DNA from: Callorhinchus milii
Taxonomy: Eukaryota
DNA: 64,000 bases
Direction: 5' to 3'
Assembly: GCF_018977255.1 (NCBI RefSeq)
Contig: NW_024704765.1
Coordinates: forward strand, 9,300,001 to 9,364,000
Below, piece by piece: positions 442-52,300 of this stretch (the stretch's first letter is position 1; the number at the start of each line of letters is the position of its first letter). The position numbers and the translations under genes were made by a program. The notes beneath the pieces are model-generated. The model worked only from the letters and a program-made list of their open reading frames with translations. It searched no databases and was not told where the DNA came from.

Positions 442-3379
442 TCCATGAGGTTTTGGAGCTCCGTGGGATTTGATCATGTGACTCTGCAAGTCTCTCTTCT
501 GCATGAACTGGTGGGGGCATGACAGGCACTGGAAGGGTTAAAGCAGAACAGGAATCGCTTAACCAGGTGGGACTGAGGATCGGTAGATAGAGACACACAC
601 AGAATCACGTGCGCGCGCAGAGAAAGAGACACACACACAGGCACGCACAGACAGACAGAGAGAGAGAGAGACAGAGACAGACACACACACACCACCCAGA
701 AACAACACAAGTAAACAAATTGTTTGGGAGATGAGAAATGGCTAGTCCTGAACGCAGCAGGCAACATCCGCCAAAGGCCAAGCGGGTCTGCTGGCTGCTG
801 AGATTCGGATCAAGCACATGCAATGTGATCAGATATTCACAAACATCGGAGCGAACCTGGTTTAGAAGAACGTGTGCGAGCAGCAGATGCACTGGATTTA
901 AACGAAAACGCCTCGGATTCCACACAGTCATCTGAATCTCTGACAGCTCCAAACCCAGGAATTAAACAACTTTTAAGGTGGGGTGGGGGGGGGGGTGAAA
1001 CAAAATAAATTGCTGGACACAATGAGATTGCTCAAGGTCAGTTTGCACCAGCGCTCTCTCACCTTGTATGGCATCTCACCCGTGTGAGACACCACGTGTT
1101 TTCTAAGTTCAATCCTTCCTTTGAACGTCTCCTTGCATTCGGGACAGGTGTAAATCTGTCACAAAAACAATACAGTCAGAACAACAACATGGGGAGGTGC
1201 GGGGGGGTGAGAATGGTGTCATATCGGGGGCGGAAAGCAGCTTGGGTCGAGGGCGGCAGCCAAAGCGCGCACCCCGAGACTAAGAGCCAGCGATCGATCA
1301 GAGGGTCAGTGTGAAATGGGTCGTGGAGAAGAAGGACTACCCAAGGACAACTAAAGACACAGCACTCATCTTCCCCCCCCCCAACCCCAGCTCCTAGCTG
1401 GACAGTCATCCTGGACGACTGCAAGCTCAAAATCCCTATCGCGAGGAGGGGGGCTTCAACCCACAACCTTGCTAGCCAGAGGCCGCGAGCGACTGAACCC
1501 GGCTGCGACAGCTAACTGTGGGGCCCAGCCATGTCTGGACTGGAGGCGTTCAGAGTGACAATAAATATCAAAAACATATAAGCGGGCGTTAAAAATAACC
1601 CGCGACTATAATTTTGTGTTAAGGGGTTTTGCTTCACGTACCACGTCCGCTCTAGTCAGGCAGTTCCTGGCCTCGTGTTTCAGCAGGTTTTCCTTCCTGA
1701 AGTAACACTTTCCACATTTGCTGCATTTAAACGGTTTCTCTCCCGTGTGTTTCCTGAAGACAAGACAAAACAAGATAGCGTGAGAGGGAGGTGGGTAGGG
1801 GGGGGCGGGGGAGGAAGGGGTCAGTCAGTACATTGCATCTCAAGTGTGCTGCCGCATTTGCCTACATATACACACGGTCATTCCATTTCCCAGTACATCC
1901 CATGAAGCGCTTTGAGATGTCCTTCGGATATGAAATAATAATCCTTGCATTTGCATCTTCAAGACGTCTCAAAAGATACACACACGCAGCTCTAATTTTA
2001 AGGATTCTGGCTCCCTAAACTCCCCCTTCACCCCCCACCGTCTCTGCCAGTGCAAAAGATTAATTCCCACATCAATTCCCTTCATTAATGTAAACCCCTC
2101 AATCACTTCACCCTTTAACCTCCTCCGCTGTCAGGAAGGTAAGCTCTAGGTTTAAAAAAACCTAATCATAATAATCACAGTAAATCACAATCCACGATAG
2201 TTTGTTGGACACTGCTGTGTGAAATTGGCTGGCACTTTGCCCACAAAATATACAGTCAATTTACTTTGACAGTATATCCTGTGAAGCAATTTGAGACGTC
2301 TCAACGATGTGATAAGGGGCTATATCAAATGCAAAGATTATGATTATCCCCACCTCAGGTGCCCAGCCAGCTCTGCGAATCTGTGACGTACAAGGCCTTG
2401 TATAAACCTACCTGTTATGAACCTTGAGGTAATATTTGCTAAGAAACGTCTTGTGACAAGTTGGGCATTCGACTGGCTCGCTCTTGGCGTTGGCTGGGTC
2501 AGCATCTCCGAGACTCTGTCCCTCCGGTCCCTGAGCTGCGGCTCTCAGTAACGTAGGCCTCTTCCGCTTCTTGTACGAGTGTTTGATCGGAACATAATCA
2601 TCATCCACTTCGTCGCGCTCGTCCATCTCTCCCTCATCTTCTTTATCCTCCTCCTTGACAAGGTCCATTTCCGGGGCGGCACCGTCGCTCCCCCCTCGCA
2701 CACTCCCCAGGCCGTTTTGCTCGCACTCCACCCGGCCACCTTCCCCAGCGTCATTGGTCTGATCGGGGACAAGCTCCCCTTGGGTCACCACACACTCCCC
2801 GTCCCGGTTCCGCTCACCAGAGGCCTTGACCCTCTCCCTTTCCCGCTCGGTCGGCAGCTGAACTCTCCCCGTCCTCCCACACCGCTCCGCCCTCTGGTGT
2901 CTCAATTGGTACTTGGATGTCGGTCGGTTCAAAGTCACCGCTTCCCCAGCCTCAGGTTTGGTGGCTGACGGCCCGTTGACCGTTCCGCCCTCCCCTGGAG
3001 AGACACTCCCCTCACCGTTACCCGCCAGGCTCTGCTGATAATGGCGGCACATTTGAACGGCATCAGGTATGCACAGCTCCTCGGCGGCGCTCAGCACCTC
3101 ACACACATTGGCTCGAGTCAGTCGCAGGTCGCCCGTGTAGATGAAGTCAAAGAGAAGTGCCAGTACGCCCGTGCAGCTCTGGGGGAGCTGGAGATCGGCC
3201 GACATTCCCTGCCTGTACACGCCATGAAAGAAACGGCTGCAACAGGACAGGATGCTGCGATGTGCTCTCAGGCACCGGCCTTCTACGTCCAGTGTCACGT
3301 CACAGAACGTTCCTTCTTCCCGCTGCTTGTTGAGGGCGTTGAGGATCTTCTTGCTGTGTTGGGCAAAGTAGTCTTCCAT
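442..3379 (-). CDS. ZBTB48: ZBTB48/TZAP BTB-C2H2 zinc finger protein (5' part; continues beyond the left edge)
   Basis: Coding exons are 3379-2412 (BTB domain [30 protein letters not shown]... to [21 protein letters not shown]), 1753-1642 ([31 protein letters not shown]), 1155-1063 ([31 protein letters not shown]) and 528-442 ([29 protein letters not shown]). All introns are GT-AG with compatible phases, and the fingers closely match human ZBTB48 ZF1-4. Confidence 0.96.
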
Positions 3380-4799
3380 GTCGACTCTGTTTTAAAAAAA
3401 AGTATAGCATCAGTCCAAGCGATGCTGTCAAATTTTCTCCCACAAAATATACAAGTGCCAATGGGACAAGTGATATTGACTGTCACAAGCAGAACCAGAG
3501 GACACAGCCTTCGATTGAAAGCGGGTGAATTCAGAACAAATCTGCGAAACACTCGTTCAATGAGTGAGTAGTAATCATATAGAACAGGCTCCCCAGAGGG
3601 AAACGGTTGAAGCAAGAAGTGTTGTTGCTTTCAAGAACAAATTAGATGGATTTCTGTTAGGAAATTATATCTCAGGATACAGTGTATAGTGTGGGACTTG
3701 ACACGCACATGCAACTGCCAAGATGATGGGAGGCAAACTGTTCTTACTACACTTCACAGCACATCCTCTATGAGATGCTTTGAAACACATAATCCTAATG
3801 TGCAAGGCGCTATATCAATCACAAGGTTTATTATCTATTTATCAGTTAACATCGGTGGATGAGGGAGGAGAGTCAGTAGATGAGGATGACGTGGTCGACT
3901 GCATTGAACACTGTGGAAATGTCCAGAAGAACGAGGAGGCAGAGGGAGCTCTGGTCACACAGAGAGAGGACGTCGTTAGTGACCTTGCGTGGCCTCACCC
4001 GAGGCCTCCGATCTCTCGGCTCACGTCTTCAGGTTGGTCAGGTCTCCCCGGTCCTGCTCCTCTTCACCTCTGAAACACACAGTCAATCCACTTCACAGTA
4101 ACATCCTGCGAAGCTCTTCGGGACTTCTCGACGACGTGAGAAGGCGCTGTATCGAACGCGAGGCTTGTTATTCCCTGCCCGATGGGAGGTCCAAAAAAAA
4201 AAAAAAGAGAAGAGAAGAGCGAAAGGGGCCTATTCCAGGGCACACTCCCCTATAAAAACCCAAAGAGAGGGAAGCGAAAGACATCAGCGCGAGATGTTGT
4301 GATGTTCATAGCGCTGTAAATGGCCAATGTAAATGGCCCTATCAAACCAAACCAAACCCAACCTTCCCTCGACCTTCCTCCCTCAGCAGCGGCAGTTTGC
4401 TGGGAGAGATGACAACTCAGAAAATCATGGAATCACAGAGCACAGAGGAGGAGGAGGAGGAGGAGGAGGAGGCGGCGGAGGAGGCCATTCGGCCCATCGT
4501 GTCTGTGATGGCTCTGTGAGACAGGAGGGGGTGGGGAGGAGGAGGGGTGGGGGGGGGGGGGGGAAGCTACCACCCAGTCCCACTCCCCAGAGCCCTGCAA
4601 ACTTCTCCTCCCCATGAGTGCATTTGGACCTGAGAGCAAAAGCCTTCAGCTTTCCTACCTGTTGGCTGACGTTTGCCCCCCACACCCACCCACCCCCTCC
4701 TCCCCCTCCTCAGGAGCTGCAGTGGAAATGACTGAGGAGCCTCCAAACGCTCCTGAGCCTCATATCTGCGGGATACGGTGTGACGCCTCTGCAGATGGC

Positions 4800-9137: not shown

Positions 9138-10484
9138 TGCCAAGTGCCGCCCGGGGTGACCCTCCTTGAGACGTAAGAGAAACGAAGATGTGTTGTGAAG
9201 ATTTCTCTGTGACTGGAACTCGCTCGGGCAAGTAGCTGGGGGATGGGGATGGGATGGGGGTTGGGGGATGAGGAGGAGACAGCCCGGTCGGTGTGCACCA
9301 GCAGTTGTGTGTTGTCTGTTGTTGCATTCTCTCTGTCTGCGTGCAGGGTTTTGTTGTGTTATTTACTGCAAGAGAGAGAGGCCTGAAAGGAACTGCGTTT
9401 ATGTGTTTGCAAGATAATAAATATTGGGGGGAAGGGTTGGCGGAGGGTGGGGGAGGGGTGAGTGCGCATGAGTATGGGACGTGACTTTGTGTTCTGCATC
9501 GGTTTCTGTGCCAACCGGGCAAGATTGGTTGCCACGGTGACTGTCTCCATGTTGGATACCCCCTCTCTTCTCCCCTCCTCTACACATACTGTTCACCTGT
9601 TCACCTGTTCAAAGTCACAGCATGAAGGTGATTTCAGTGGCTTCATTAAAAAAAGCATAATTGTTTTTATTTGGGGGAGATTGTGGACTTGACTGTTCCC
9701 TTCAAAGGAGCTGTGGTGCTGGAGGAATAAAGGTCTCTTTCAAAGCATCTCTCGTGCCTTGTTTCACTGGTGATGCCTGTGGCTGGAGGGCATAAACTTA
9801 AGATCATCAACAAAAGGGAGAGCGGGGGGTAGTCAGGGGGAATGCTTATTATTACAAACAGAGGATTATCCGGAGATGGAATGACCTACTCCGGTGAACA
9901 TTAATGATCCCGTGGCGCTATTGGAACAGATACCATCCGTGTGATGATAATGATAGTCCTTACATTTGATATTGTGCCTCATCATTTTGTTGAGACATCT
10001 TCACAGAATATACTGTAAAATGGAGTGACTCTATATTTTGTGGATGAAATGTGGCAGACAACAACAACAACACGATTGCATTTATAGAGCGCCTTTCACT
10101 TCGGGAGGATTGCACACAGCAGTGTCCCACAAACAGTCGTGGATTGAGGGACCAAATTTCATCAGGGTCAGGTGGGGGGAAAGGAGGGAAGAGAGGGGAA
10201 TAGATTCCATGGGGAGAGGAGAAGGGAAAGGCCTGACAGGGGCACGAGTAGAAATAATTTTCCGTTTGAACATAAACCACCAAAAGTGTTTTGCAAAACA
10301 TACAGGGATTTTATTGGTAAGATTGAAACAGAAAAATTAGCAAACACTTTGCCATTATTCTTTAATGCTGCTGCCTTTACTCAGTTCAGGAACACATATA
10401 CTGTATCTTCCAACAGGGCACAAAATAGTAACCGCTCCCTGGGTGGAGGGGGGGAGGTGGGCGCGCAGGAGCACCAGGTGCTCC

Positions 10485-12444
10485 TCAAACGCAGTATTTC
10501 CAGAAACACTCAGAGAAATTGTTGCATTTTCTATATTGTCTCTCCTCCAATCCCATCGGGAAGCTGACCTCGGACCACTGAGATCTCCTCCCGTCCAGGA
10601 TCTGTAGAGAGAGAGAGGGAAATCACATCAGTGTCAACTGCTGTTCAATGCATCTTCTCCGCTCGGTATAAGAGCAAACGACAATAACAACAGCAGCTTG
10701 AGTGAGTGAGTGAGTGTGTGTGTGGTGGGGGGGTAGTGGCAGGAGGGGGGAGCGGAGGCTGGGGGTAGTAGGGGCTGGGATCCTTTTATATTCACCTGAA
10801 TCACATCTTCACAAATTTCCCCAGGTCTGGAAAGGGCACACCCTGCTTATCTAATTTCAGAGAGAACTGGGCACAGGTTGGCAAAAGCCAAAGCTTGAGG
10901 GAATCTCAGAGTGTGTGAAGGGGCACTTGCTGGAGCTTAATCAGCTAAAACCGCTCGGTTTGTTTTGAGAGCAATGTCCAGGAAGCTTCCTGCTGCTTGT
11001 GGACTTGTTAGGGCTTTGGTTTGCAGGGTTAACAGCCACACATCTTACAAACAATGAGTCAAATAAATTTGAGTGGGGGCTTTTTTGTGGTGGGGTGAGG
11101 GTGTAAATTTAGATCTGAAGAGAGGTCTCGGAGTGTCGGGGTGGTGGGGTGTGGATTTGACCTGTGTATTATAATTATATTATTATTAGAAATATAATTA
11201 GCGCCTTGGGACATCCTCCCGATGTGAAAGGCGCTATATAAATGTAATCTTGTTGTTGTTGTTGTGTACATTCACCTCAATGAGATTTCCAGTCGGGGAG
11301 AAACTCTTCCACTTCACACCTGCTGAAAGCAGAGAAAATCAGAGAACCAAACTCAGTGAGAGTCTGGAAGCCGGAGGAGACAACAGCCCTTTGACCACAG
11401 ACATCTGTGGATTCCTACAACGTAGGTTAGAGCACTCGCCTCGCAAGCGAGAGGACCTGGATTCAATTTCCAACCGGGAATTGGGAAACCTTAGGCATTA
11501 TTCCTTACTCCACACGTCTCTGTTTACCTCTGCAATAAGTGGTGTTCCGGCGGTAATAATCCCTCCAAAAATAATTAAATAATCATTAAATCGTCTCCCA
11601 CAAAGTACACAGTCAATCCACTTTACAATGTATTCTGTGAAGTGCTTTGAGACGTCTCGAAAAACAGGGTACCAATGCAAGGATTATTATATTATTATCA
11701 CAGGAGATGAAGGATTGAGTCTGAGGTGCAAATAATACAATAATATTCCAATAATATTCCATTGTAACAAAAGTGGGGTAAAGATTCTTCTTGTTAAGGT
11801 ATAAGCACAATGCCCGTGGGTGGCCAGTAGGTGGCAGTCTTCACATAAACCAGGTTCATTCACATCAATAATTGACCCAACTTCACCCTCAAATAATAGA
11901 ACAAAGTATGGGGTTGGGGGGGGGGGAGTCTATGAAACCTACCGCTCTTGTGGTGACGTTTAGCTTCTTCTCCGGTTCTCGTCAGATCCAGAAGGCTGTT
12001 CCCAAGCAGGATTGCAGGGACGCCGTGGAGGTGGTGAGAGCTCCGCATTCCATCCCTACTCAGCGTCTCCTCACCTCTACTGAAGACTGGAACGAGAGTT
12101 ATGAGGGTGGGGATGCGGGTGGGGTGGGGAGAAGCTGGGAAGGGAGGAGGGAAAGAAAGATACAAGTTTTTTTTAATATAATAACAACAACTTGTATTTA
12201 TATCCCGCCCTTCATGTGGGATAGCGTCTCGGACCACTTGCTTAATAGCAATAATAATCCTTGCATTTTGATAAGCTGTTCCCCTTCTCTCTCCCAACCC
12301 CACCCCACCCCTCGCACTGTCGCTCTTACCTCCTCTGCTGTATTGGGAGTCGGATACAGGAAGGCAGAGGACACCGGGGCGGCAGAACAGCAACGCACCC
12401 AACAACAGCATAAGATCATAACGAGGGGAGACAGAGAGCAGCAT
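10485..12444 (-). CDS. UTS2: Prepro-urotensin II (140 aa)
   Basis: Exons are 12444-12330 (signal peptide MLLSVSPRYDLMLLLGALLFCRPGVLCLPV...), 12086-11943, 11322-11276 and 10601-10485 (ILDGRRSQWSEVSFPMGLEERQYRKCNNFSECFWKYCV*), with phases 1, 1, 0. The CFWKYCV ring preceded by an acidic residue and an NNFS extension matches shark UII (dogfish NNFSDCFWKYCV). Confidence 0.95.
11821..11838 (+). promoter_or_regulatory. CTCF-like motif
   Basis: TGGCCAGTAGGTGGCAGT is a close match to the CTCF core consensus. Confidence 0.5.
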
Positions 12445-12468
12445 GCAGACCCCAAGCGCTCAGCCCAT

Positions 12469-12494
12469 GCCTTTATATAACTGCCTTTATATAG
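12469..12494 (-). promoter_or_regulatory. Tandem TATA boxes upstream of UTS2
   Basis: The minus strand reads CTATATAAAGGCAGTTATATAAAGGC, 25-50 bp upstream of the ATG. Confidence 0.6.
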
Positions 12495-17411: not shown

Positions 17412-20400
17412 ATGGCTGAGATCGCGATCGATCAGTCCCGACTGCCGCGGGTTCAGGAGGGTAAGATACAGGAAACGTTCAGCCCCGTGGGGGGAGTGCG
17501 GGGGTCATGATATTCTCAAGAACTTTCTCTTCGACTGCGCCTTGGGTCATCTTCCACCACCTGCCCCCCCGTCCCAAATACCCACACCTCTCTTGACTGC
17601 AGACCGCAGCTCGGGGCATCCTCCTGAGGCGAAGGGCACTGCGTAAATGCAATTTGTTGTTGTTGTGTTCCTATCACTGTTACCCTCAGCCCCCACCCGA
17701 AACCTCATCCCGGCGCTCTCTTCCGTGTCCCTTAATCTTTTTGCGGCTCTGTTGCTTATCCAGTTTCCATCTGAACGATTCAAGCTGCCAGCCTGCAGTC
17801 CAAGTCTCTGAGTCAGACAGATGGTTGTGGGTTCGAGCCCCACTGATTCTCCAGCGCAGTGCTGGGGGGAGAGAGTGGGGGGAGCACTGAATTGGGTGAA
17901 TTATTAAACCCAGGTCCTATCTGTGCCTCTCTAGCTCACAGTGGTCAGTCTCTAACTGTGAAGGAACTGCTCTGTCTCTTTGTCTCTGTCTCTCATTCCT
18001 TCTCTCCTTGTCTCTCCCTCACACCCCCTCGATTTTTTTCCCTCCCCCTCTATTAGGATGTGGGCAGTGTGTAATGTCTGCTTGCAAGCCACAAATTGTC
18101 GGCTGGGCACGAGTGTGACTAAATTTCCTGGTTTCCTCACAACCTCTATTTAGAAGTGTCCATCACCGCAGTGGAGGATGGAGCTGAGCCGTGCTCCACC
18201 CCAGGGATTACTTTCATGGCTCCACAACGTTTTTGACACAACAAAATCCCCCCACCCCCCTGCCCTCCACACTAGGCATTCCGTGGAAACAGGAGGAGGC
18301 CATTCAGCCCCTCGAGACCTGTTCCGACATTCTATAAAATCATGGCTGATCTGTACCTCAAGCGCTCTGGGAGGCTCCCATGCATGAGAGGCGCTATATA
18401 AATGCAAGTTGTTGTTATTTATTGCTTGCCATCTGCCTCCCCCTCCCTTTGGTTAAGTCAGAGTCTTCTTTGGGGTGGGTGGGGGGAAGCAGAAGGATAA
18501 ATTGGCTTGGTGATGCTCTGGGTGTTATGTGGTCTGACCCCTGAACGTGTCTTCTCTCTCTCTCTCTCGTGTGTGTACAGTGTGCCGGGGATTCGCGTTG
18601 CTGGAGGATGGAGCCCTGGCCCACAGTCTCCAGGAGCAGGAGAGTAAGTGAGGACCCACCTAAACCCCCCACCCCACCCCCCCACCACTCTGGTCTCAGC
18701 CACTTTGGGGGCCTGTGTGACGCAGACCGTAAGCGCTCTGTCACGTAGCGTAGCGGTTAGAGCACTTACCTCGCATGCAAGAGGATCCGGGTGCGATTCC
18801 CGGGCAGCGCAAATTCTTAGGTAAGTTTCCTTACTCCACACGCCTCTGCATACCTAGCAGTATGCACGCACCCAGCCAGTAAACGCGGGTCCCCACGTAC
18901 GAACTCGGGCAGTGACTGTCGGTGCCGTGTTGCTGTTGCAGTTGAACAACATTACGCCTCCAACGTCCAGAAGAGCCAGCTGGTGCGGCAGGACGTGCGA
19001 GTGGCCAAGATCCTACAGGACCAGGAGGAGCGCCAGGCACGGAGTCACAGCCGCGAGGAGCAGAGCAGGCAGGTCCCACTCCCCGGGGGGTGTGCGTGTG
19101 AGTAGGGTGGGTTGTTAAGCGCCCCCACCCCCCCCTATGCTCCCCTCCCTGCGACTTGAAAGACCTTCCTTTTCGACCTTGCTTATGGCCACCCCCTCCC
19201 TTCCACACACACGCAAACCCCCACCTGGCTCCCGTACGCTGCCCCATCTGAATGCCGCTGTGTAAATGCTATTTGTTTTTGACGCTGTGTCTGGGGGAGT
19301 GGTGGGGTTTGACACTGCGTTGGGGGTGGTGGTTGGGCTGTGCCGGGGAGTGGGGGGGGAAGCTGGTAGGGGGGCGTTTGATGCTGTTTCTGAGTTGGTT
19401 TGATGGTGTGCTGGGGGGGGAGGCTTGGGGTTGTGTTTGAGGGGGTAAATGGGGCATGTGCTTGTTTGAGGGGGTGATGGTGGGGGGACAATGGGGGTGG
19501 GGTGGGTGGGGAGACTGACGCTGTGTACTGAGGCGGGATGGTGTTGTGTGTGTGCGCAGGGAGGAGCAGGACTCTCAGTATGCCCGGGCCGTGCAGGAGG
19601 AGATTCACAGCCGAGCAACTGAGCGGCATCGGCGGGAGGAGGAGGACAAGGTAGGGCTGTGGAGGGTGTTGGTGGGGGGGGTGTGTCTCTCTCTCTCTCT
19701 CTCCTCACCACCCTCTCTCATCTCTGCCAACTCTGTCTGAAACGTCTCATTAAAACCAGATCAACCATTTCTCTAATGAGCTCCCCCCCACAGTGACTAG
19801 CAGATGTGGAGAAATATCACTGTGTCGAGTTGGGTTTGGTTGAGGGCCGGTCTGAGCCCTGGGATGTCTCCCAGCAAGTGAGGTGAAGTGCCTTCCCACC
19901 CCCTACCTTCTCCTCCCACCCCCACCCACCACACCGATTCCTGTGGCTGGCAGTAAATATGAGAGCTGAGTGTGGGGGGGGGGAAACGGATAAGAGGAAG
20001 GCGAAAGCTAAGCACGGTGCCAGCCTGCAAAAGGTTGCTCGGAAAAATACCCATCTTTTTGCCAAGAACAATCTGGGCTGATCCACCGTTTCCATCGAGT
20101 GCAGACAACACGCCAGTCTGTTTATATATAACACCCGCTCCAGGGCAGGTTCCTGCAGACTCCCAGCCCCGGCCAACAGCTCACACTGAGGCAAACTCTC
20201 ATCATCATAATAAGCCACGTGTTTGACACTGTGTGAGAGAGAAAAAGACGGAGCGAGCGAGACAGGGGAGGGGGAGAGAGAGAGACTGAGAAAGCCCTGC
20301 AGTGTCAGAGATGTTGTCCTTTGAGACCATCTGGGCTCCATGTCCAATGCAGGGGGGCAGGCAGGCGTGTGCACTTGCGGGCGTATGTGTGTGAGCGCGT

Positions 20401-27900: not shown

Positions 27901-30900
27901 TCATACTGTGAGCAAACTGTCCTGAGAAGAGTCTGTGCTATCGTCTCCCAGCTCTTTCACAGGATAGTGACAGCTACAGGCATCATCCTCTGTCTGGGCC
28001 ACAGGGGTATCATCTGTCAATAGGAAACATGGGTTAGGGTTCTAAGTCAACCTTGCGCTGGGGAAACAATAGCACCACCCACACTTGCGCGCACACACTC
28101 GCGTGCACACACTAACTCACACGTACACACACTCACATACACGCATGCACTTACACAGACACACACACACAAACACATGCGCGCACAGACACACGCAAAT
28201 GCACACACACACACATGCTGACTGGTGCCAACTGGTCCTCCCTCACCTTTTTTGGGCATCCTTTTGTGCCGTTTCCTGGTCAAAATCACAGCGAACATGG
28301 TGAACGGGATGAACAGGCACGGCACCAGGAACGCCGCCAGGATTCCTAGAACATTTGCATCCTTTTCCGGATACACTGTACGGAGGAGAGAGAGAGAGGG
28401 TTTGAAGCTGGGAAGGGCTGGATGGAACATGGTCGGTCGGTCGGTCTACTGGTCAGGGCTGTGAGGGGACTGAGATGGAACAGATCCTGTGAATCAACAT
28501 GACCTCAAGAATGGAGTCCCGTAGGGTACTGGTTAGCACGCTCGCCTCGCAAGCGAGAGGACCCGGGTTCGATTCATGGGCAGGGTGAAACGTTGGGCAA
28601 GTTTCCTTACAGGTCTCTGCTTACCCAGCAGTAAGTAGGAACCTGGTTGTTAGTCGATTGATGGATCGTTTTCCAGAGGTAATAATCCCTCCCTCACCCC
28701 CCAATGATCCACTCAATCCACAACTGTTTGCGGACACTGCTGTCAGCAATTGGTTGCCGGGGGGATGGCATTAGAGTAGAGAGCTCCAGTGGTGGGGGGT
28801 GAAGATGTAATGTGAGTAGCAAGATGGAGTGTAAGGTGCAGAGGGGGAGGCTGTACCTTTGAACTGTGGGCTGTGTTGCGGTGTTGTGGAGCTTGTGCTT
28901 GTGCTTGCGGTGTATGTTCTGGCCTGGATGCTCCTGGGAGGAGTTGGACTGCACTCCCTGTCCTGAGTGCTGGAGCCGTTTCTGGTCACAAACATTCCTT
29001 TGGTTGAGCAGCTGGAACCAGAGCAGAAAAAGAGATTAATGCGAGAGCTGGAGAGCTCCCGAGGGGAGGAAGGATCTTTCTGAGCTTGGAGGTTGGTACA
29101 CAGCTACGATTGGGGGGTAGAGAAAGAGAGCAGGGAAGGGGATTGGAGTAGAGAGCTCCAGTGGAGGGAGCGAGCACCAGTACAGACAGGATGCGCTGGT
29201 CTGAATGGCTTTGTTATTGTGACATTAACTTTCCGAATGAGTGCGACAGAGGCCGAGAATATTGCCAGTTACAGTCCTCGCTGTTCATGTTGCTCTTTTA
29301 TGGTAATAATATCACTGCTTCCTCCCCTCTCCCCTCTTCTCCCCCCCCCAACCCCCCCTCCACCGCCAACACACACAGTTTGCACCAAAGCTCATTCACC
29401 TTTTTATAGACATTAAACACGTCATCGGCGACTTCGGAAAATCTAAAGGGACGATTGATTCATCTGAGAGGAGGCGTCTTATCTAATGTGGTTTGAGTGG
29501 TTTGCAGTTTCTCCAATGTGTGTGTGAAAGGCACGGGACCGTTTCATGTTTGCCTCCGCCCGCCTCAGTCTGTACAGTTACAGTAAGCAAGTGAGCCATA
29601 GTCTGAGTGTGTGTCAGAAAGACAGAGAGAGAGAGACACCAACCATCGCTGCTCTCTGTGGGTGGGAGCTAATGGCTCCTGTTGTGGTGGTCGCCGAGAG
29701 GTGGGGGGGAAATTGCCAAGACTGAGCAATGAGGGGGGTTCATGTTGGGGAGAGGGGGAGGGTACACTCAGACAGGGCTGAACATTGGCTCTGACGTGTG
29801 ACCTGTTGTTTCCATCGCGGGTCTGATCCCTGGTGACCTTTTAGTCGGCCACATTTGGTTACTCACACAGTACCCTTTTGGGGCAAAGTGAGCGCTGAAG
29901 GATTTAGATGTCAGCCCGGCCCAGTCTCTCTCGCCTCCAAGTCAAAAGATTGTGGGAGGGGGGAGCACTGTATTGTCGGAGGTGCCATCCTTCAGATGAG
30001 ATGCTAAAGATCCTGCAACACTGTTCAGAAGGAGAAGACCAATTCTCTCTCCCGGTGTCCTGGCCAATAAGCCCTCAGAGAAATATATGTTCTCCGTCTC
30101 TCTGTCTTTATAAAACTAAAGGGCAGAAACAGTCACTGGGGGCAGGGAATCCTCCACCTCAGCTCCTGTTAACCCTGCAAGCCAAAACCCTAACGGGTAG
30201 GGTGGTCCTAGCTGGACAAGCAGCAGGAAAGCTTTGCCAGCCGGTGCTCTCAATGGCAAAGCCGTATGGTTTTAGCCGGTTAGATTCCAGCAGTTCCCCC
30301 ATCGCACACTCTGGGCTCCCCCCAAACCTTGGCTCTCGCCAACTGCGCCTAATACTTTCTGGAATTAGGTAAGCAGGAAGCATCCCTCCAGGGAGAGAGA
30401 GCGCATTCCATTCCAACAATCTCTCTGGGATTTCCATGTGTAGGTGGGATGCCTGGAATTCTCAGCTTAGTTTGGGTACTCTTAAGCACGGTGATGGTTT
30501 TCCGCTTGTGTCAGACCCCCAAGTGACCACGGCAGTGTGCTGAAGGACTGTGTCCATGGTCTTGTTATACCCGATGTGTGAAAATAGCCACTTACTCAGT
30601 CCAAGGTATGCATGGTTCCCCCTCTGTCTTGGAAAAGCTTCCCTCATCACAACCAGTGCACTCGGTATCGGAGTTTGAGGTGCCTGAAAACAGAAGGTGA
30701 TGATGGTCTGGTGAACGTGAGCTCCACTGATGGCACCTCGCCTCGTCTCACGCTGGGCAAACGGACCACGTGAAACCCATGCGGGACTTGGCAAGATGGA
30801 TGGTCAGTGAGTCGGGGACCAAGAGGGCATCAGTTTAACATAGGAAATGTGCAAATAGGAGGCCAGGGAGAGCCAGAAGGTCGTTAAGAGGTAATTGTAC

Positions 30901-31924
30901 TGTTATTAATGCTTCATCTTCCCGAGGGAGCGTCTGCCTGGCCCCTGGTCTGGGAGACAGACTGGGGCATGTGGGATGGAGGTTTGGGTGAGAGATGTTA
31001 CCTTCTTTGACGATCCTTTGACCCGGTAGGCAGGACCGATGGGCCATACACTGATCACAGGCGTCATTGCTGCACATGTAGCCCTGGACACAGCCACACT
31101 TGGTGTTGGAGATGGCCGTACACTGTCGCTCCACTCGGAACTTGCCTGCGATGGACAGAAAAAGAGACTTTGGTTATTCAGAGAGACGAGACAGACGCCC
31201 TGTCTTACCCCCAGCTCCCAAAGCCATCTGTACCATCACACTCGGTGAGTTAGTGTCAAACTCAAAGCATTCAGTCCCACCCGAACTGTGTGTGTGTCAC
31301 ATCCTGTGTACATCAGATACAGCTCCTGTGTTACAGTACATTCTTTGTTCAACTCCTATCATCTGTAAACCCATCACTCCCATCCTCGCCCGGGTCCACT
31401 GGCTCCCCAAGCTCAAAGTCCTCGTGCTCTCTTTCAAAGCCCTCCACGGCCTTGCTCCTCCCAACCTCGGTGACCTGCTAACCCCATACCGGCCTGTCCG
31501 CTCCCTCCTATCAGGCCTGTTCCACGTTCCCCCTCCCTGCCCGCCCCATCACCAGCCTTCAAGCCTCTCTGCCCCCACCCTAGGGAACTCCATCCCAAAG
31601 TCCCTTCGCCTCGCCCCCTCCCTTACCTCCTTCAAGGCACATCTCAAGACCTTCCTCTTCGACCGCTCCTTCGGTCACTCTCCCAACCCCTACCCTCCCC
31701 GCCCTCCTGATCCCAACTCCCCTAGCTCGGGTGCAAATCCCTGCCTGTCTAGCGCCTTGGGACATTCTCCCGACATGAAAGGCGCTGTGTCAGTGTAATT
31801 TGTTGTTGTTGTTGAGACTTACTCCCGAAACATGACTGGCATCGTTGACACCGCCTGAGGTTTTCATCGTTGGAGAAGCTTGTTGCTGGACAGGGTTTGC
31901 ACGTATTTTGAGTCTTATATGTAC
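27901..31924 (-). CDS. TNFRSF9: TNF receptor superfamily member, 4-1BB/TNFRSF9-like (signal-peptide exon not located)
   Basis: Exons are 31924-31823 (CKPCPATSFSNDENLRRCQRCQSC), 31145-31002 (CTAISNTKCGCVQGYMCSNDACDQC), 30683-30596 (CTGCDEGSFSKTEGEPCIPWT), 29011-28857 (DCSTKGMFVTRNGSSTQDRECS plus a S/T stalk), 28375-28247 (TM helix plus RKRHKR) and 28013-27901 (PVAQTEDDACSCHYPVKELG...LLTV*). Phases are consistent. The tail resembles 4-1BB PVQTTQEEDGCSCRFPEEE, and TNFRSF9 neighbours UTS2 in human. Confidence 0.75.
29068..29762 (+). repeat. About 700-bp duplicated segment, copy 1
   Basis: Near-identical to 60072-60833 in the same orientation. Confidence 0.9.
30170..30520. repeat. Unclassified interspersed repeat
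   Basis: The motif ggaattaggtaagcagg...gggatttcc(a/g)tgtgtaggtgggat...cttaagcacggtgatgg recurs at about 23800-24050, 37610-37780, 43990-44110 and 62790-62990. Confidence 0.7.
31355..31812 (+). mobile_element. L2 LINE 3' fragment (ORF2 C-terminus and tail)
   Basis: Translation PITPILARVHWLP..KVLVLSFKALHGLAPPNLGDLLTPYRPVRSL...FKAHLKTFLF is typical of the L2 ORF2 end. It ends in (TGT)n. Confidence 0.85.
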
Positions 31925-34900
31925 CTGTAAATCAAAGAAAGATTATTTACAAGAGGCACATTACGTGTCCATTCAGCTGTGTTCGTGAGCGTGAGCATGT
32001 GACGTGCGTGTGCGCACACGCGCACGTGTGTGAATGAGAATGCGTGTCTGAGTTGTACACGCAGACACGCACGTACACAAGAGTGAAAGATTAATTATTA
32101 TCCGAGATAATAATGACCTCATCTCCTTCCTTCCACCACTGTCTGATCTCACAAGGTCATCAGGGTTTTACTCAGAACTCCAGACGACGACAACAACAAC
32201 AACAACTTGTGTTTACCCAGCACCCCCTCAGGCACGGTAGGGTCCCGGAGCACTTGAGAGTGGCAGAGCAGGACCCTGAGCCTGGGGGTGGGGGGACGCG
32301 GTGACCGTAGCCAAGGTCCAAGAGGAAGGTCGTCAGGCGTGACCTGACGGGGGGGGAAGGAGGGGGCGAGGCGGAGGGTTTAATGACTGACTGACACTTG
32401 AAGGGTTAAACCTCTTTGCCGGGTACATGTTAATTAGATTTCTAAGGAAGACGGTGGGGTCAGTGCTGCCGACATTTGAGTCATTCAGCTTTCCAGCAGC
32501 ACTGAGAAACCCCAGTCCGTGACCCCCTCCCCCCCCCCCCACCCGCGGGGGAAAATTCTAACTCACTGCCAGTCAATGTGGGTTGATTTGGCACCGTCCC
32601 TCAGGGAGATTAACTCTCAGAACAGTCACCGCTCAATTACCTTCTGAAAGCCCCGAGCCCTCCCTGACCTCCTGATTTGCTCATCAGCTCTCACTATGTT
32701 AATCCGATGGCCTCTCCTGTTCCCTGACTCACCGACTGTCGAGCTCTCCACTTCTCCAGGTCCCGCTCGGAACACCTTTTCAGTGCCTTGTTTTAACAGT
32801 ATTTTTTTTACACACCCTCCACACCACTCTTCAGCCAATACAATTTACATCTACATTCAAGCAGCGTCTTTCACTTTGCCAAGAGAGAGGGGGGGGGGGG
32901 TGAGGGAGGGAAATCTAATCGAAAGCCCTGGTCGGTCAGTCGGTCAAAGAGGTGAGTCTTGAATCCAAATAGTTAAGAGGAATCTTGTGAACGTCGATCT
33001 TCGAAGTTCATCGGTTGATTAAATTGTACAATGGCGCAATTTACAGGAATGATACAACTCTCTTATCAAAGCGAAAGTGATAGACACACGTAGAATTATT
33101 TCTGTGCAGAAACTCAAGCTATATATAATGCACTGCACTATATTTAGACTCGAGCAACTGCTTCTTAGTCAGTAACATTTCCCCAAGACTCCACTCCGAC
33201 CCTTGTGAATCTGAGCTGACCATACTGTTGCTGAGCAAACTCAGTGGTTTTGAAGAGAAACTCTAGCAAAGTGCAGCAAGTTTCATTGTAGTTTCTCGTG
33301 GCACAGAACAGCGAGCAAACACACACANNNNNNNNNNNNNNNNNNNNNNNNNNNNNNNNNNNNNNNNNNNNNNNNNNNNNNNNNNNNNNNNNNNNNNNNN
33401 NNNNNNNNNNNNNNNNNNNNNNNNNNNNNNNNNNNNNNNNNNNNNNNNNNNNNNNNACACATATACATAGTGTATTACTCTCACACACACACATATACAT
33501 AGTGCAGCATACACATACAGTGTAGTATTCTCTCACACACACCTACACCCATGCAGTATTCACACAGTGTTACACACAGACACAAACACAGTGTGGTACT
33601 CACACACATACAGGACACACAGTGTACAATACATTACTATTACACTGTACTCACGCACGCACACAAAGTGTAGAGCGCAGAGAGAGCCAAGTTACAGTCG
33701 AGTTAAATGAAAGCATTATTTTACATGAATTCTCTTTGAAGCACTAAGCTGACAACCGTTTTACTCTTACTTGTTTCTGAAACTGGCAAACAAAAAAAAG
33801 CCCTGAAAGTACAGTACAGTGGGTGACAAGGCTTTGCAGAGAAGCGATAATAATTACAATAATGGTACTATTACTAATAATAATCCTTGCATTTGTTATG
33901 GCGCCTTATCCGATGAATTTTTTTTTAAAAAAAGTTGTTGTTACTGTTAACTCTTTACCTCTTGGGCAATTGACAGCCAACGTGACAGCAATGAGGAGAG
34001 AGGAGAGAGCGCAGATCTGTGCAATGAGATGTGTCATCGTAGTAAGCCAAAGGAACTGTGGTTCACTGATTGCTACTGACTGTGCTTTTGGCCGCCGGGG
34101 AATGTATAGAGCACGCCTAGCGGGGGATGTGACGGAGTGTGGGGGAACCCCACTCCCTAGATACACAAGTTTATTTTTGAATTGAGTACTGACTTATAGC
34201 CAGAAATTCCCAGGCAAAGCAAAGCTAACCTTGTGCAACTATTATTCCTGTTTTTCTTTGGGATTCCCAGCAGGAGTGTCCAGTGTCTCTGAGTGCAGCC
34301 AGTGCCTGCAGAATGTTTGTTTTGTTCTCGTTTAATAATTTTCTAAAAGAACCAGTTTTTTTTCTAATTATTTGCCCAAATTGGACTTTCCCTGTAGCCT
34401 TCTGGTAACTGCTGGACTCAGTCCCCAAGAGCTCCCCTTGCATTAGAAATACCCCCTCACTCCCTCTCTCTCTCTCTCTCCTCAGTGTATGTCAGGAGTG
34501 GGTCCATGTGCCAATGACAGTGCATTTATTCACTCACTGATCTTGTTTCCTCTTCTCAGAAACACAGGGCATCAGTTTGGCACAATCCATCACTCTCCTT
34601 CCCTCTCGGCATTGGTTAGAGCACTCGCCTCGCAAGCGAGAGGACCCAGGTTTGATTCTCGGGCGGGGCGAAACCTTAGGCAACTATCCTTACTCCACAC
34701 GCCTCTGTTTACCCAGCAGTAAGTAGGAACCCGGTTGTCAGCCAATTGGCGGATCGCTTTTCAGGGAGTAATAATCCTTTTTTTAAAAAAAAATTGGTTA
34801 CTCAAATCCACGACTGTTTTTGGGACACTGTTGTCTGCCACGTTTCGTCCACGAAATATACACCACTCCACTTTATTGTATAAATCTGTAAAACACTTTG

Positions 34901-46300: not shown

Positions 46301-49300
46301 TTTTATTAACCGGCCACTTTTTTTTTTAAACTCTCCCTTTGCTTTCCGCAGGAAGAAGCCAACTCACGTGGAGGTGAACTGCTGGTTCTGCAGCCAGGAC
46401 ACGACCGTCCCCTACGGCAACAGGAACTGCTGGGACTGTCCCAACTGCGAGCAGTACAATGGCTTTCAGGAGGTAAGATCCTCTGCGGTTTCTGAAATAG
46501 CGCAGGTCTGGCTGGTGACATGTCCCTTGTGCCAATCTTCGTAGCGGTCAGTGGGCTCCCCTCGCATCCAAGAGGACCCGGGTTCGATTCCCAGGTTGGG
46601 GATCACTCAAACCGCGACTGTTGGTTCGGACGCCGCTGTGCGCAATTGGCTGCCGCGTTTCGCCCGCGAAATACGCAGTCAATTCGCTTTCCGGTACGTT
46701 CTGCGAAGCGGCTTCGAGACGTCTCAACGACGTGATAAGGCGCTACGCACAACGCAAAGATTATTCCGGCTCTGCCGCTGCGATCGGCCGTTGGAAAAGA
46801 GGAGGGAGTTTAGTTGCTCGTTCCCGGTGTCCTGGCCAACAGTCGCCCCAAATAAAATTGCTCACTCGCTCCGTGTGCCGTCAATCAATTCGCTTTACAG
46901 TCTATTCTGTGAAGCGCTTTCAACGACGTGATCGAAGGCGAGGGTTATTATTATTATTGTTTGCTCGCCGTCTTAAACAGACGCCCTCTAGTCACTGCCT
47001 GATGACGAGTCCCGTTGACGTACTTTCTGTTCCGTTCTCTCAGAACGGTGACTACAATAAGCCGATACCTGCTCAGTACATGGAGCATCTGAATCACATG
47101 GTCACCAGTTGGACAAGTCCCACGGAGGCGAGCAAGGTCCAACAGTGGCCGAACGGACAGCTTCTCTTCTGCAAGAAGTGCAACAGCAACCAAACCCTGA
47201 AGGTCAAACAATTGGCTTCCTTCGTACCAAGAGATGAGGTGGGACACACTTTTATTTGTATTTATTTTTTGAACCTGTAAGCGGTTTAAAATTCTTTATC
47301 AGTTGAAAGAATCGTTGAAAGAATCGTTCACTCACCACTTGGTCTTAGTGTTCATCTTATTTGGGACTGTCATTCCCTCAAACAGCCCTAAAGGTAATTG
47401 ATCAGTTTTATCTGGGGGACTGTGGCTGTTTTTTCTCTCTCTCTCTCTGTGATTGACTTGTAAGGACATCAGTGGCTTATGCGATTCAAATATTTTACAA
47501 AAAATAAAACGCTCGAAGGCTCGTGCAGTCTCGCCCCTTACTGTGCGAGTGTGGCGCTTTGGTGGAGAGTGTACTGTCGAGGTGGATTGATTGTAAATGT
47601 GTTTTCATCCCGTTCCACTGGTTAAACCGACGCCTCTTCTTTATCTTTCTCGCCTGCTTTCTCCCCCAATCCACTACCCGCTCAGCCTCCTGCTCATCCC
47701 CGCTACACCTACTGACTCAAGTCGTGCGTCGAGCCCGTGTCCCTTTGCAACCGCCGAGGATAGTTGGACCGTGCGCAGTGCAGTGATATCAATGGGGACA
47801 GCAAAGGGTGCTTTGGTCCAGTCAGTAACGACGTGCGTTTGCAGATGGAGGCGTTGTGCGTCGGTGCCCAAGGTTATTGGTGGCGTTGAAAAGAGAGAGG
47901 GAGAGAGAGAGGGAGAGAACTTTGGTCACCTTTTACTTTGACTTAATCCTCATTGGCCTTTCTCCGGAGCATTTTGAGAGTCTCCACGGAGCTCGAGCAG
48001 GAGTAGATCTTCGAAGAGCTTCGTGGAGCCGTCGCTCAGGAAATCCCGTCTCGTCCGCAAAATACTCCACTTTGCAGCACACCCCGTGAAGCACTTCGAG
48101 GCGTTCTCGACCCCGTGACGTACGCAGGGATTATTACTGCCGTTGAGGCGACAGCTGTCAAGCCTTAAGAAACAAGGAGGGATGTCTTTTTTTTCTGACC
48201 TCGTGACCGCGATCCGTTCAATTTCAGGCGAAGGAAGGCCCGGATTGAACTGCGCAGCCACCCCTCCGTTAATCCCGAAATTCCTGAGTTGTTTAAAGCG
48301 CAGTCGGGTCGTGGAGAAGTTTCCACGTTGAAGGGTAACCAGGTGCAGGTAGAGAGCGATAAGATCTGGTCACGTCTACTGCCCCTCGGCCGATGGCTTT
48401 TCATCCAGTGACGGGCCAAGTTAGTCTTTCCTTCGTCTCGTACGATATTCCCAAAGCGGGAAGTGGATTTCTCTTCAGGGTGTTCTTCCCAGTGGCCACA
48501 TCCAATGGCTAATAAGTGCAAGTTGGTGTCGACGTCATTTCCCCCGTTGCTTTTGAGGGCAGCTCCTTTGCTGCGCAGATTCATACAATGATAAATCATC
48601 AACAACGCATCTTAAACACTGAACTCCATTGTGATTTAAGTCTATTTTGGGTCTTGCTTTTCTCTCCCTCTCTCTCTCTCTCTCTCTCTCACACTGCTGC
48701 AGCCATTAACGATCAAGATTATTTGCTAATTTACGTCCGCATTATTCACTTTGAAAAGGAGTATCCGAGGAATATCTAAAGGGCGATTGCGCGTGAGAGC
48801 GAGCGCGAGAGTTGGGTTCAGGTTAAAGTGCGGAGGCAAATGCGCGGTCGCTCTGCCCTGAGTTCGTTTTGAAGGACTGGTTTCCGCTCCCGTTGACAGG
48901 ACAGGTACGAGGACGAGATTGAGATGTACAAACACCACCTGGAGCAGACGTACAAGCTGTGCCGTCCCTGTCAGACGGCTGTGGAGTATTACATCAAACA
49001 CCAGGACAGGCAGATCCGAGCCATTCTCTTCGATCACCAGCTCCGGCATCGAGAAGCAGACAAAACTTTTGTGCAGGTAAGAGTAGCGGGGGGGGTTGGG
49101 GTGGTGGGGGTGGGGTGGGCAGAGGTTCCGGAGGTCGGCGAGACCTTAGGAGTAAAGATTTTTTGGTTTTATATAAAGTCGCTAGGAACGTTATCTGCTG
49201 CGATTATTAATTATAACCTGGTTCAGCTCAGCAAATCTAGACAACCCTTATTCTGCTTATTACGACTAGCAATAATTAATAATAATCCTTGCATTTGATA

Positions 49301-52300
49301 TAGCGCCTTATCACGTCAGACGGACGTCTCAAAGCGCTTCCCATTGCTGTGAGACAGAGTGACTGCACTGCGTATTTGTAGGTAAATCTGTGTTGAGCAC
49401 AGCAGTGTCCCACAAACAACCATGAAACGAGTGACCAATTTTTTATTGGGGAGGTGGTGGGGGGGAGACTGTTGGCTGGGACACCGAGAGAGAGAAACCC
49501 CTTTCTCTCTCCCGAATAGCGCCCCACGAGATTGACAGCATCCCGAAGCTCTTCACAGGATTCGCTGCCGCGGGCACTGTTTTGACAGGACGACGGCAGA
49601 AGGACATCGCGTTAGAAACTCGGTGTTAAAAACGTGCGGTCGCGGATACATTACCGGACGCTTAACAGCGACTACGATGCCAGGAAAAGAGTCTGCGTGT
49701 TTTCTAGGAAGGGTTTCTTTCCCCCCCCCCCCCACACACACACAAATCCCTGGGGGGGGAAGAAAAAGATCAAACATTTTGTATTTCACCTCGAGGGAAA
49801 TGACACCCGAGCCCCTCGCCGGGTTGCTCGCAAGAATCTGGGCCAAAGGTTAATTTACCCCGAATGATTCCTCCAAAAATGTCCCGTGGAGTGCTTTGAG
49901 GCGTCTCAACGACGACATTCCCGGGTCCTCTTGCTTCTCGAGGCGAGCAACGCCAAGCCACCACGCTTACAAGTCTCTTTTAAGTGTCTTGAATTCGGTC
50001 TCTCTCTCTCTCTGTCTCTCTCTCTCAGAGCTCCCACTACTCCGGCCTGTCCACTCCGATCCGCGTGGTATTCCTACGGTTCCTGGCCTTCGTGAGCTGC
50101 GCCATGCTGTTGGCCCTGGCGCTGTGGGAGGGTCCGTTCGACCCACGCCCGCCCTCGGCCGAGACGAGAGCAGCAGCAGCCGTCGCCGCCGGGCCGAGCC
50201 CAGCTCCGCAACCGACCAACGGCGGCAACCGGACCGACCCGGGCCCCGACCTCGCTCGCAACGTCAGCCTCTGGCAAGAGCTGCTGAGCGCGCTGCCGGA
50301 GGACACTCTGGCCGGCCTGCGAGCCGCCTGGAGCTACGGCGAGGACCACCAGATGGCAATCGTCTCCACTGGCCTCTTCACCTGCCTGTTGGCCATCATC
50401 CTGGCCGGGCGTATAAGGTAGGCAGGCATCTNNNNNNNNNNNNNNNNNNNNNNNNNNNNNNNNNNNNNNNNNNNNNNNNNNNNNNNNNNNNNNNNNNNNN
50501 NNNNNNNNNNNNNNNNNNNNNNNNNNNNNNNNNNNNNNNNNNNNNNNNNNNNNNNNNNNNNNNNNNNNNNNNNNNTCATCCCTCGGGAGACGGTGGAAGC
50601 AGAAGGAGTCGATTGGTTCAAATACAAATTGGATCGATTTCTTTTAGAAAGTAATTCGTTGAGAGACAGTTTAGGAGCAATTTGAGAGTCTGTGGATATA
50701 TATATATATAGATAGAATCGTAGAATATTACAGCCAGAAGGAGGCCATTCGGCCCATCATGCCTGTGCTGGCTCTTTACAAGAGCTACCCAATCGGTCCC
50801 ACTCCCCATCTTTCCCCGTGCTCCTGCAAATAGTAAGTGTAGTAGGGCTTGGACGAACCAAACAACTTTGGATCCAAGGTTCCCAAGGCTTTCCCCTCTG
50901 CTCTAGACTAATCCATTCAGAATTCATCACCATCAACCTCTCCATTATTGTAGCAAGCGACGATCAGGATGGCAGAAGGCAATCTAGATGGACCTCGGTC
51001 TGTTTTTTTCATCCAGGATTTCCTACGTCCCTACTATCTTCAAGTAAAACTCCCGATAATCTCGTTCCAAGGGAAAAGGGCTCAGTTATCAGAAGGGGTG
51101 AGTTAGGGGCTGTATCAAGTGCAAGGAATATCATTACTCTTGACTTATTATTACACAGTCATTGTGCTGCGTCTGCAAGAAATGTGATGTGATTTGCTGA
51201 GGTTGGAGGTGTTGGTTTGCAAGGTAACAGTATCTACTGAGCTGCCCGGAGGCCTCACCGGCCTCTTGCTTTGGTGAGGTTGCAGGTGCTTGACAAGGCA
51301 AATCCGGGGCAGACACAGTGTCAGACGGGAAAATGTGATTCACCTGAGCAAATGTCTCGTTAAAAGTGAAGAGCAGAGGAAAGACGTGTCTGTTTAGGGA
51401 AAAGGGTTGGGGAGAGAGGGCGGAGAAGTTAAGAAGCCCTGAAGGTGATTAGGTACCACTCGCAGTGATTAAATGCATCTGACCTTTACGCACTCGCTCT
51501 TTGGAGCTTGCAAAATCAACAGCTGTGCTTTCGCCTTCCGTTGAGAGTCTCCAAAGAGCTTCGGCAGGGTAATAGGGTAGAGTGGAGTGACTGTGTGTTT
51601 TGCGGGCGAAACGCGGCAGCCACTGACCAAATTTTGTTTGAACGGAGGGATTATCACTCCCGGAAAGCCATCAACATTAACAACCGGGGTTCCTACTCAC
51701 CACCGGGCAAACAGAGGCGCGTGGAGTAAGGAAACTTACTGAGGTTTTGCCCGGGAATCGAAGCCGGGGAGTGGGGGGAGAGTTATCTCGCTCGAGAGAC
51801 GAGCGGGTTAACCGCCGGAACGCCCAACGACCCACGCTCTCTTTTCCTCCCCCTGAGCTCAGACTGCGGAGGATCGACTCGGTTTCGTCCCTCCTGTGGC
51901 TGTCGGTGATGGGTCTGCACCTGGCCGAGAGGTACCTGCAGAGCGGCCCGCCCGCCTGGCTGGACGCAGCGAAGCTCAGCGCCACGGCCCTGTGTTGCCT
52001 GGCGGGATTCGCGGCGTCGGTGGCGACACGGAAATCCACGGGCCAGAGGAGATGCCGGGCACGAAGGTCAGAACAGTGAAACGGTGGCGGACGCTGAACT
52101 CTCTCTCTGCGTGCGTGTGGTTGCGTGTGTGTGTGTGTGCGCGTGCGTGTGTTTCCTGTTCTGCCTCTCCCGCCATCCGTGCTTCTGTCCGTCCGTCCGT
52201 CCGATCGCCTCTTCCTTCGGGATCTTAAAGGGGCAGCGACATTAGTTGCGGACCTGGGCACGACCTCGAATTCCAGTTGTGTTCGAACCAAACCCATCTG

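Follow-up and report, generated by a model that had tools for sequence, protein, structure and literature searches.

Urotensin II (UII) is one of the main hormones made by the caudal neurosecretory system of fish, according to the available part of PMC4364556. In rodents, the accessible text of PMC5403833 describes URP as isolated from brain and the UII precursor as being without KKR. A catshark prepro-UII query returned 33 proteins (10 elasmobranch, 23 bird), and cluster look-ups added 24, for a total of 57 proteins from elasmobranchs and birds only. Of these, 55 were complete to the C-terminus (10 elasmobranch, 45 bird); P0008 and P0011 (two of 12 elasmobranch rows) have no last exon and were omitted from the site count. 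All 55 complete orthologues carry K/R-K-R immediately before the 12-residue peptide (KKR in 53, RKR in two), upholding what the original prediction, made from the letters of this DNA alone, had given as the usual UII release site.

We analyzed a window of 64,000 nucleotides from Callorhinchus milii (contig NW_024704765.1, positions 9,300,001 to 9,364,000), numbered here from its first letter. The window holds a locus that we read as UTS2 on the basis of its closeness to UII precursors, its four-exon colinearity with them, and the presence of URP-type loci elsewhere in the genome. The last exon scored 24.7 bits against Pfam PF02083 (Urotensin_II; cut-off 18.6), and the best match among 1.84 billion representatives was Scyliorhinus canicula prepro-urotensin II. 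This exon is single-copy in the genome (991.5 Mb, 1762 contigs; next matches at E 0.32 and 6.8). As expected of UTS2 and not of URP, the N-extended peptide lies within the last exon, the nearest named proteins are UII precursors, and the gene is single-copy. The four coding exons have GT-AG borders (12444–12330, 12086–11943, 11322 or 11319–11276, and 10601–10485) and give an open model of 140 or 139 codons that aligns end to end with shark precursors. From ATG 12411 or 12444, the genomic coding frame is free of stops and frameshifts, and a hydrophobic stretch in exon 1 lines up with orthologous N-termini in an alignment in which the start codon is uncertain. The parts of the gene are as follows.

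12330–12444, minus strand: coding part of exon 1, signal-peptide-like, ending in phase 1; modeled from sequence and alignment, with no spliced contig there.
11943–12086, minus strand: exon 2, 144 nt, phase 1-1; a contig from run X6 covers 12083–11944.
11276–11322, minus strand: exon 3, phase 1-0, 47 nt long or, with the second AG (11319) as acceptor, 44 nt; required for the UII frame.
10485–10601, minus strand: coding part of exon 4, 117 nt including the stop, phase 0.
10310–10315, minus strand: AATAAA, a putative polyadenylation signal.

The acceptor of exon 3 is a NAGNAG tandem (11319–11322, minus strand), and both exon lengths, 47 and 44 nt, are in frame. Intron 1 (12087–12329, minus strand) is 243 nt long, a multiple of three, with no in-frame stop; one open frame (11863–12459) thus runs from exon 1 through this intron into exon 2, and intron retention would preserve it. 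Protein database searches with exon 4 and with the exon 1–intron 1–exon 2 frame returned no match and hence no database protein of this gene, which is weak evidence; a PDB search found no match, and an Atlas search gave leads all below 0.9. One match, P0002, was dropped as an unnamed, repetitive 537-residue chance match.

The neighbors include a BTB zinc-finger gene (2411–3391, minus strand) and a TMEM201-like gene (46519–50418, plus strand; Ima1_N, DUF2448). TNF-receptor-like exons at 28050–31931 (minus strand) have scores below the Pfam cut-off; human UTS2 adjoins TNFRSF9 in the available part of PMC3084835. We also observed a CCDC50-like gene (18559–19069, plus strand) on the upstream side of UTS2 at a distance of 6 kb; another CCDC50_N match (contig C11:445673–445804) lies 21 kb from one of the URP-type exons, L012. 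In humans, CCDC50 is linked to UTS2B, and the two copies may be a duplicate pair kept since whole-genome duplication beside both UII-family loci.

On the minus strand, positions 10540–10485 include CAA (10538–10536), TAT, AGA (10532–10530), AAA (10529–10527), and TGC (10526–10524), followed by 12 peptide codons (10523–10488) and TGA (10487–10485). The original prediction had read R-K-C before the 12-residue UII peptide in the last exon of UTS2, and this reading was confirmed. Three features lie in and near this site.

10524–10532, minus strand: altered processing site Arg-Lys-Cys, in which TGC at 10526–10524 replaces an invariant Arg.
10488–10523, minus strand: UII 12-mer with the CFWKYC ring intact; 11 of 12 residues are elasmobranch-like, and Glu for Asp is bird-like.
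10584–10589, minus strand: upstream Arg-Arg pair that would yield a 32-residue product; R-R is present in two of 10 elasmobranchs.

The comparison with relatives that the prediction had called for gave a uniform answer at P1, with Arg in 55 of 55 complete orthologues and Cys in C. milii, where the site reads RKC. Because Arg occupies the site in every complete orthologue, the change to Cys goes beyond chance. The claim of an odd third Cys in the pro-hormone was also borne out (three Cys in C. milii vs. two in the last 60 residues of 55/55 orthologues). CGC is the single Arg codon one step from TGC, so the simplest candidate origin of the Cys codon would be a CGC>TGC transition at a CpG, as had been proposed.

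We then asked public reads whether the codon is real. Six runs held the stretch, four of them from one study, and five covered codon 10524–10526 (X1, X2, and X4, which are DNA-like, and X5 and X6, which are spliced; studies P1–P3), whereas X3 stops at 10452, short of the codon. Eighteen other listed runs contained almost nothing of the stretch, which says nothing about expression. No covering run showed any other letter. As a positive control, the same five runs have an extra G after position 10447, at 77 nt from the codon; differences from the assembly are therefore visible here. This insertion, in the 3′ UTR and present in five of six runs, is probably a homopolymer error of the assembly. 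It separates the assembly from the five runs only 77 nt from the codon and so speaks for the view that TGC is an assembly error or one animal's rare allele, but the codon agrees in 5/5 covering runs from three studies whose other variants show distinct haplotypes. We therefore regard that view as extremely unlikely, and its assembly-error part, which the prediction had named as what would overturn it, is ruled out by the five runs. With six of six copies (assembly plus five runs), the frequency of TGC is bounded above about 0.61 (one-sided 95%), or 0.55 without the assembly copy, counting contigs that represent one path per sample with rare variants dropped. One run could be from the assembled animal, though the variants of the runs differ from the window and from one another. 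TGC looks fixed or common and is likely fixed, not a rare allele.

The two spliced runs, from two studies, revealed a further departure. In both of their spliced contigs (X5, X6), exon 2 is joined straight to exon 4. Record 25 of X6 maps to 12083–11944 and 10601–10370 with one letter between; at the exon 4 acceptor, both X5 and X6 have loose ends whose letters match the last part of exon 2 (in X5, 22 of 23 letters at 11944), and depth over 11292–11375 is zero in both. Splicing at GT-AG sites led us to take X5 and X6 for RNA, no run being recorded as such; their depths are 3.6 and 19, their tissue is not recorded, and contigs hide minor isoforms. A counterpart of the exon 3 segment is present in all 10 complete elasmobranch precursors. 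The end phase of exon 2 (1) does not fit the start phase of exon 4 (0), so the skipped form shifts frame and its mRNA stops at 10533–10531, upstream of the UII peptide. Two further features were mapped.

10531–10533, minus strand: TAG ending the exon-3-skipped frame, giving a 109-residue product without UII.
11199–11265, strand unassigned: high-copy repeat fragment starting 10 nt inside intron 3, for which no part in the skipping emerged.

With its early stop in the last exon, the skipped form should fare no differently from the full form under message decay, and skipping is probably the main outcome in the X5 and X6 samples. A return of the skipped mRNA to the UII frame was rejected, since exon 2 has two stops in that frame with no ATG after them, and so was a retrocopy as the source of the spliced contigs (the genome has no second strong match). 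The C. milii gene thus departs from canonical prepro-UII in three features: the K/R-K-R site, the limit of two Cys, and an in-frame mRNA. An annotation warning follows: an intact-looking hormone exon may sit in a gene whose transcripts do not code for it.

Among inverted repeats, a donor hairpin, and donor strength, we found no cis cause of the skipping. Introns 2 and 3 share no inverted repeat pair that would loop out exon 3; the best inverted matches are 15–19 nt long (E 0.6 or worse). A hairpin of the exon 3 donor with the adjacent repeat (predicted −4.9 kcal/mol) is ordinary: 71 of 300 shuffled sequences and 13 of 45 donor-like sites are equally hard to open, and the exon 2 donor, which is used, is predicted to be harder to open than that of exon 3. 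A weak donor alone does not suffice either; the U1 duplex of exon 3 (−7.0 kcal/mol) is weaker than the others (−9.6 and −9.0), yet an exon 2 donor allele in X6 (−5.3) is used. That allele reflects a differing letter at 11943, the last base of exon 2, which weakens the donor. X5 and X6 also have in common a Lys-to-Thr difference at 11960 that is not in X1 or X2.

The 5′ end of the gene has its own irregularities, and three elements there need to be named.

12471–12493, minus strand: two tandem TATA-like boxes (12493–12485 and 12479–12471), with a putative promoter role.
12460–12468, minus strand: minimal upstream ORF, Met-Gly-stop, in strong start context; within the mRNA only if the first box starts transcription.
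12417–12419, minus strand: out-of-frame ATG with a purine at −3, 59 nt (19.67 codons) before a conserved Pro.

The duplicated TATA-like 12-mer and, after it, the Met-Gly-stop in strong start context (12468–12493, minus strand) are noted as a side observation. Both in-frame ATGs (12444 and 12411) have a pyrimidine at −3. In six of nine elasmobranch N-termini, a Met stands exactly 20 codons (60 nt) before the conserved Pro, and we infer from this spacing that the ATG at 12419 would be the ancestral start, shifted by loss of 1 nt just after it; neither X1 nor X2 lists an indel near 12417–12419. The in-frame ATGs bypass the putative 1-nt shift. One shark has its Met 17 codons before the Pro, matching ATG 12411; the shift may therefore be harmless or tolerated.

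Outside the peptide, the precursor has changed quickly. A relative-rate test on protein, without a genome-wide control, counted 19–24 C. milii-specific vs. five to nine elasmobranch-specific changes; p was below 0.05 for 13 of the 16 triplets, which are not independent of one another. Propeptide identity to birds is 16%–18% for C. milii vs. 29%–33% for elasmobranchs. In a tree, C. milii UTS2 falls on the elasmobranch side with a branch of 1.29 (vs. a median of 0.086) and an unsure placement. The available part of PMC3964593 calls the holocephalan genome the slowest-evolving vertebrate genome, and that of PMC12952989 describes holocephalan genomes as compact. Three coding differences were found between runs (11280, 11960, and 11943), all amino-acid changing and none silent, too few to test; exon 4 had no variants among the five runs. 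We simulated neutral decay under an assumed transition bias, CpG rate, and indel ratio: both the frame and the 12-mer survived in 17%–30% of simulation runs at 0.02 substitutions per site and in 1%–5% at 0.05. With frame and 12-mer intact, any loss of selection must be recent, and the gene cannot be long dead. The fast propeptide is no proof of decay in itself; for the most part it goes back to a long time during which selection still acted on the peptide. UTS2 is a single copy with no intact second copy, the search being a lower bound in a large genome, and because its genomic frame is open, it is not classed as a pseudogene.

Elsewhere in the genome, three of 11 pattern matches besides UTS2's own are URP-type last exons (L006, L012, and L013), with intact peptide exons and the same CFWKYC ring as UTS2. 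In these three loci, candidates for URP, URP1, and URP2 in no assigned order, the last exon starts at the residue preceding the ring, whereas that of UTS2 encodes an N-extended peptide. Upstream of L006, and likewise of L012, lies an exon whose end reads K-R; for L013, no such exon was found within 1.5 kb. The first residue before the ring is Val in L012 and Ala in L006, both of which end Ile-stop, and L013 ends Val-Thr-Asn. Tostivint 2013 and 2014 are reportedly the works cited for elephant shark URP1 and/or URP2, and a C. milii UTS2 sequence may already be in print. The report of URP1 and/or URP2 in elephant shark appears in the available part of PMC4364556.

We incline, with moderate confidence, to the explanation that C. 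milii UTS2 is a recently relaxed, hypomorphic gene in early decay that makes little or no canonical UII. Most of its mRNA would lack exon 3; terminating within the last exon, it would be spared nonsense-mediated decay and yield the 109-residue product without UII. Messages containing exon 3 would have to start at weak-context ATGs, and their precursor would offer only R-K, a poor PC1/3 site, plus an unpaired Cys; in a peptide library, PC1/3 cleavage followed KR and RR, and the enzyme is described as leaving RK and KK in POMC uncut (PMC9070308, available part). Loss of selection on the peptide would be recent, with frame and 12-mer intact, and the URP-type paralogues, having the same ring, would likely cover receptor signaling. 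A hypomorphic allele was among the outcomes originally predicted; this outcome gains from the frameshifting skip in 2/2 contigs, the out-of-frame ATG, and the fast propeptide. TGC looks fixed or common, not like a rare allele. The main counter-evidence to decay is the open four-exon frame, the GT-AG sites, and the conserved 12-mer, and neurosecretory cells may include exon 3.

The open frame and conserved 12-mer, together with the absence of exon 4 variants among the five runs, would also suit a gene still functional in neurons, releasing a Cys-extended 13-residue UII through cathepsin-L-type R/K cleavage and an aminopeptidase, or through a convertase acting after R-K. Through the extra thiol, the peptide could dimerize, enter a mixed disulfide, or close an alternative ring, and the skipped transcripts would be leaky splicing elsewhere. 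We hold this reading possible but on balance unlikely. The remaining Y-R-K would be a poor convertase site and a possible cathepsin L site leading to the 13-mer, and an R-x-x-R, the minimal furin motif, ends at that Arg. Proteins with an unpaired Cys tend to be retained in the ER; moreover, neither spliced contig can encode the 13-mer, and 0/55 orthologues have more than two Cys in their last 60 residues. Tyr-Arg-Lys suits cathepsin L, whose cut falls between R and K with a preference for a hydrophobic residue at P2, and basic residues at an N-terminus are trimmed by aminopeptidases (all for human enzymes), but the tripeptide assays described used x-K-R, not Y-R-K (PMC9070308, available part). 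A specific version, in which neurons include exon 3 and release the three-Cys 13-mer by the cathepsin-L/aminopeptidase route as a dimer or second ring isomer while skipping acts as a tissue switch silencing the gene elsewhere, seems to us rather doubtful. Release of a 32-residue N-extended form by a cut after Arg-Arg at 10589–10584 was also predicted. The pair is a PC1/3 site (PMC9070308, in the part available) and lies 32 residues from the C-terminus, but the claim is weakened by the residues that elasmobranchs have at this position (RR in two, RK in six, and RS in two; n = 10). The stretch from pair to peptide is poorly conserved, exon 3 would also be required, and the available part of the review PMC5403833 states that activity appears to depend on processing down to the short peptide; we consider this form improbable. 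With one disulfide, the calculated neutral monoisotopic masses are 1536.62 Da for the 12-mer, 1639.63 Da for the Cys-extended 13-mer, 1767.72 Da for a Lys-Cys 14-mer, and 3977.74 Da for the 32-mer. Little credence likewise goes to a canonical 12-mer still usefully made by a cut near R-K and trimming of the Cys, with the change nearly neutral: the 12-mer is conserved and rodent UII precursors can go without KKR (PMC5403833, available part), yet we found no known route in the literature, and exon 3, absent from the spliced contigs, would be needed.

C. milii UTS2 is unusual against every orthologue sampled, and most likely it is a gene losing function rather than one encoding a new hormone. To our knowledge, holocephalans lack typical Dahlgren cells; were these cells indeed absent, decay of the gene would match the loss of the organ. 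If true, loss of UII in a jawed-fish lineage that retains three URP-type genes would offer a natural test of how far URPs can stand in for UII, in a scope of one gene in one lineage. UII-like immunostaining in chimaera spinal cord, cited in the available part of PMC4364556, might then reflect URPs. A Cys-extended peptide, if produced, would instead represent a new natural form of UII. Our literature search found no report of an Arg-to-Cys change at a UII site or on holocephalan Dahlgren cells; the available part of the PMC3964593 supplement contains neither "urotensin" nor "UTS2", and term searches of the available text of PMC8354755 and PMC4406059 gave nothing relevant.

Compared with elasmobranch prepro-UII (Scyliorhinus canicula XP_038629232.1, Rhincodon typus XP_020368918.1), the C. 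milii precursor is colinear, including the exon 3 segment, with 55% identity over the last exon and the same 12-mer save Glu for Asp. Elasmobranchs have K/R-K-R and two Cys in 10/10, whereas C. milii has R-K-C and three; a basic cluster precedes Gln-Tyr in elasmobranchs, and Leu-Glu-Glu does so in C. milii. Outside the peptide, C. milii shows 25%–38% identity to elasmobranchs vs. 60%–80% among elasmobranchs, and exon 3, whose segment is present in elasmobranch precursors, is skipped in C. milii transcripts. Rat and mouse prepro-UII likewise lack the typical KKR and have a paralogous peptide available, but the available part of PMC5403833 mentions neither an additional Cys nor a frameshifting exon skip in them. 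The gene resembles unitary pseudogenes in early decay in its single copy, lost site, frameshifted transcripts, and intact paralogues; unlike them, it keeps an open genomic frame and a conserved peptide.
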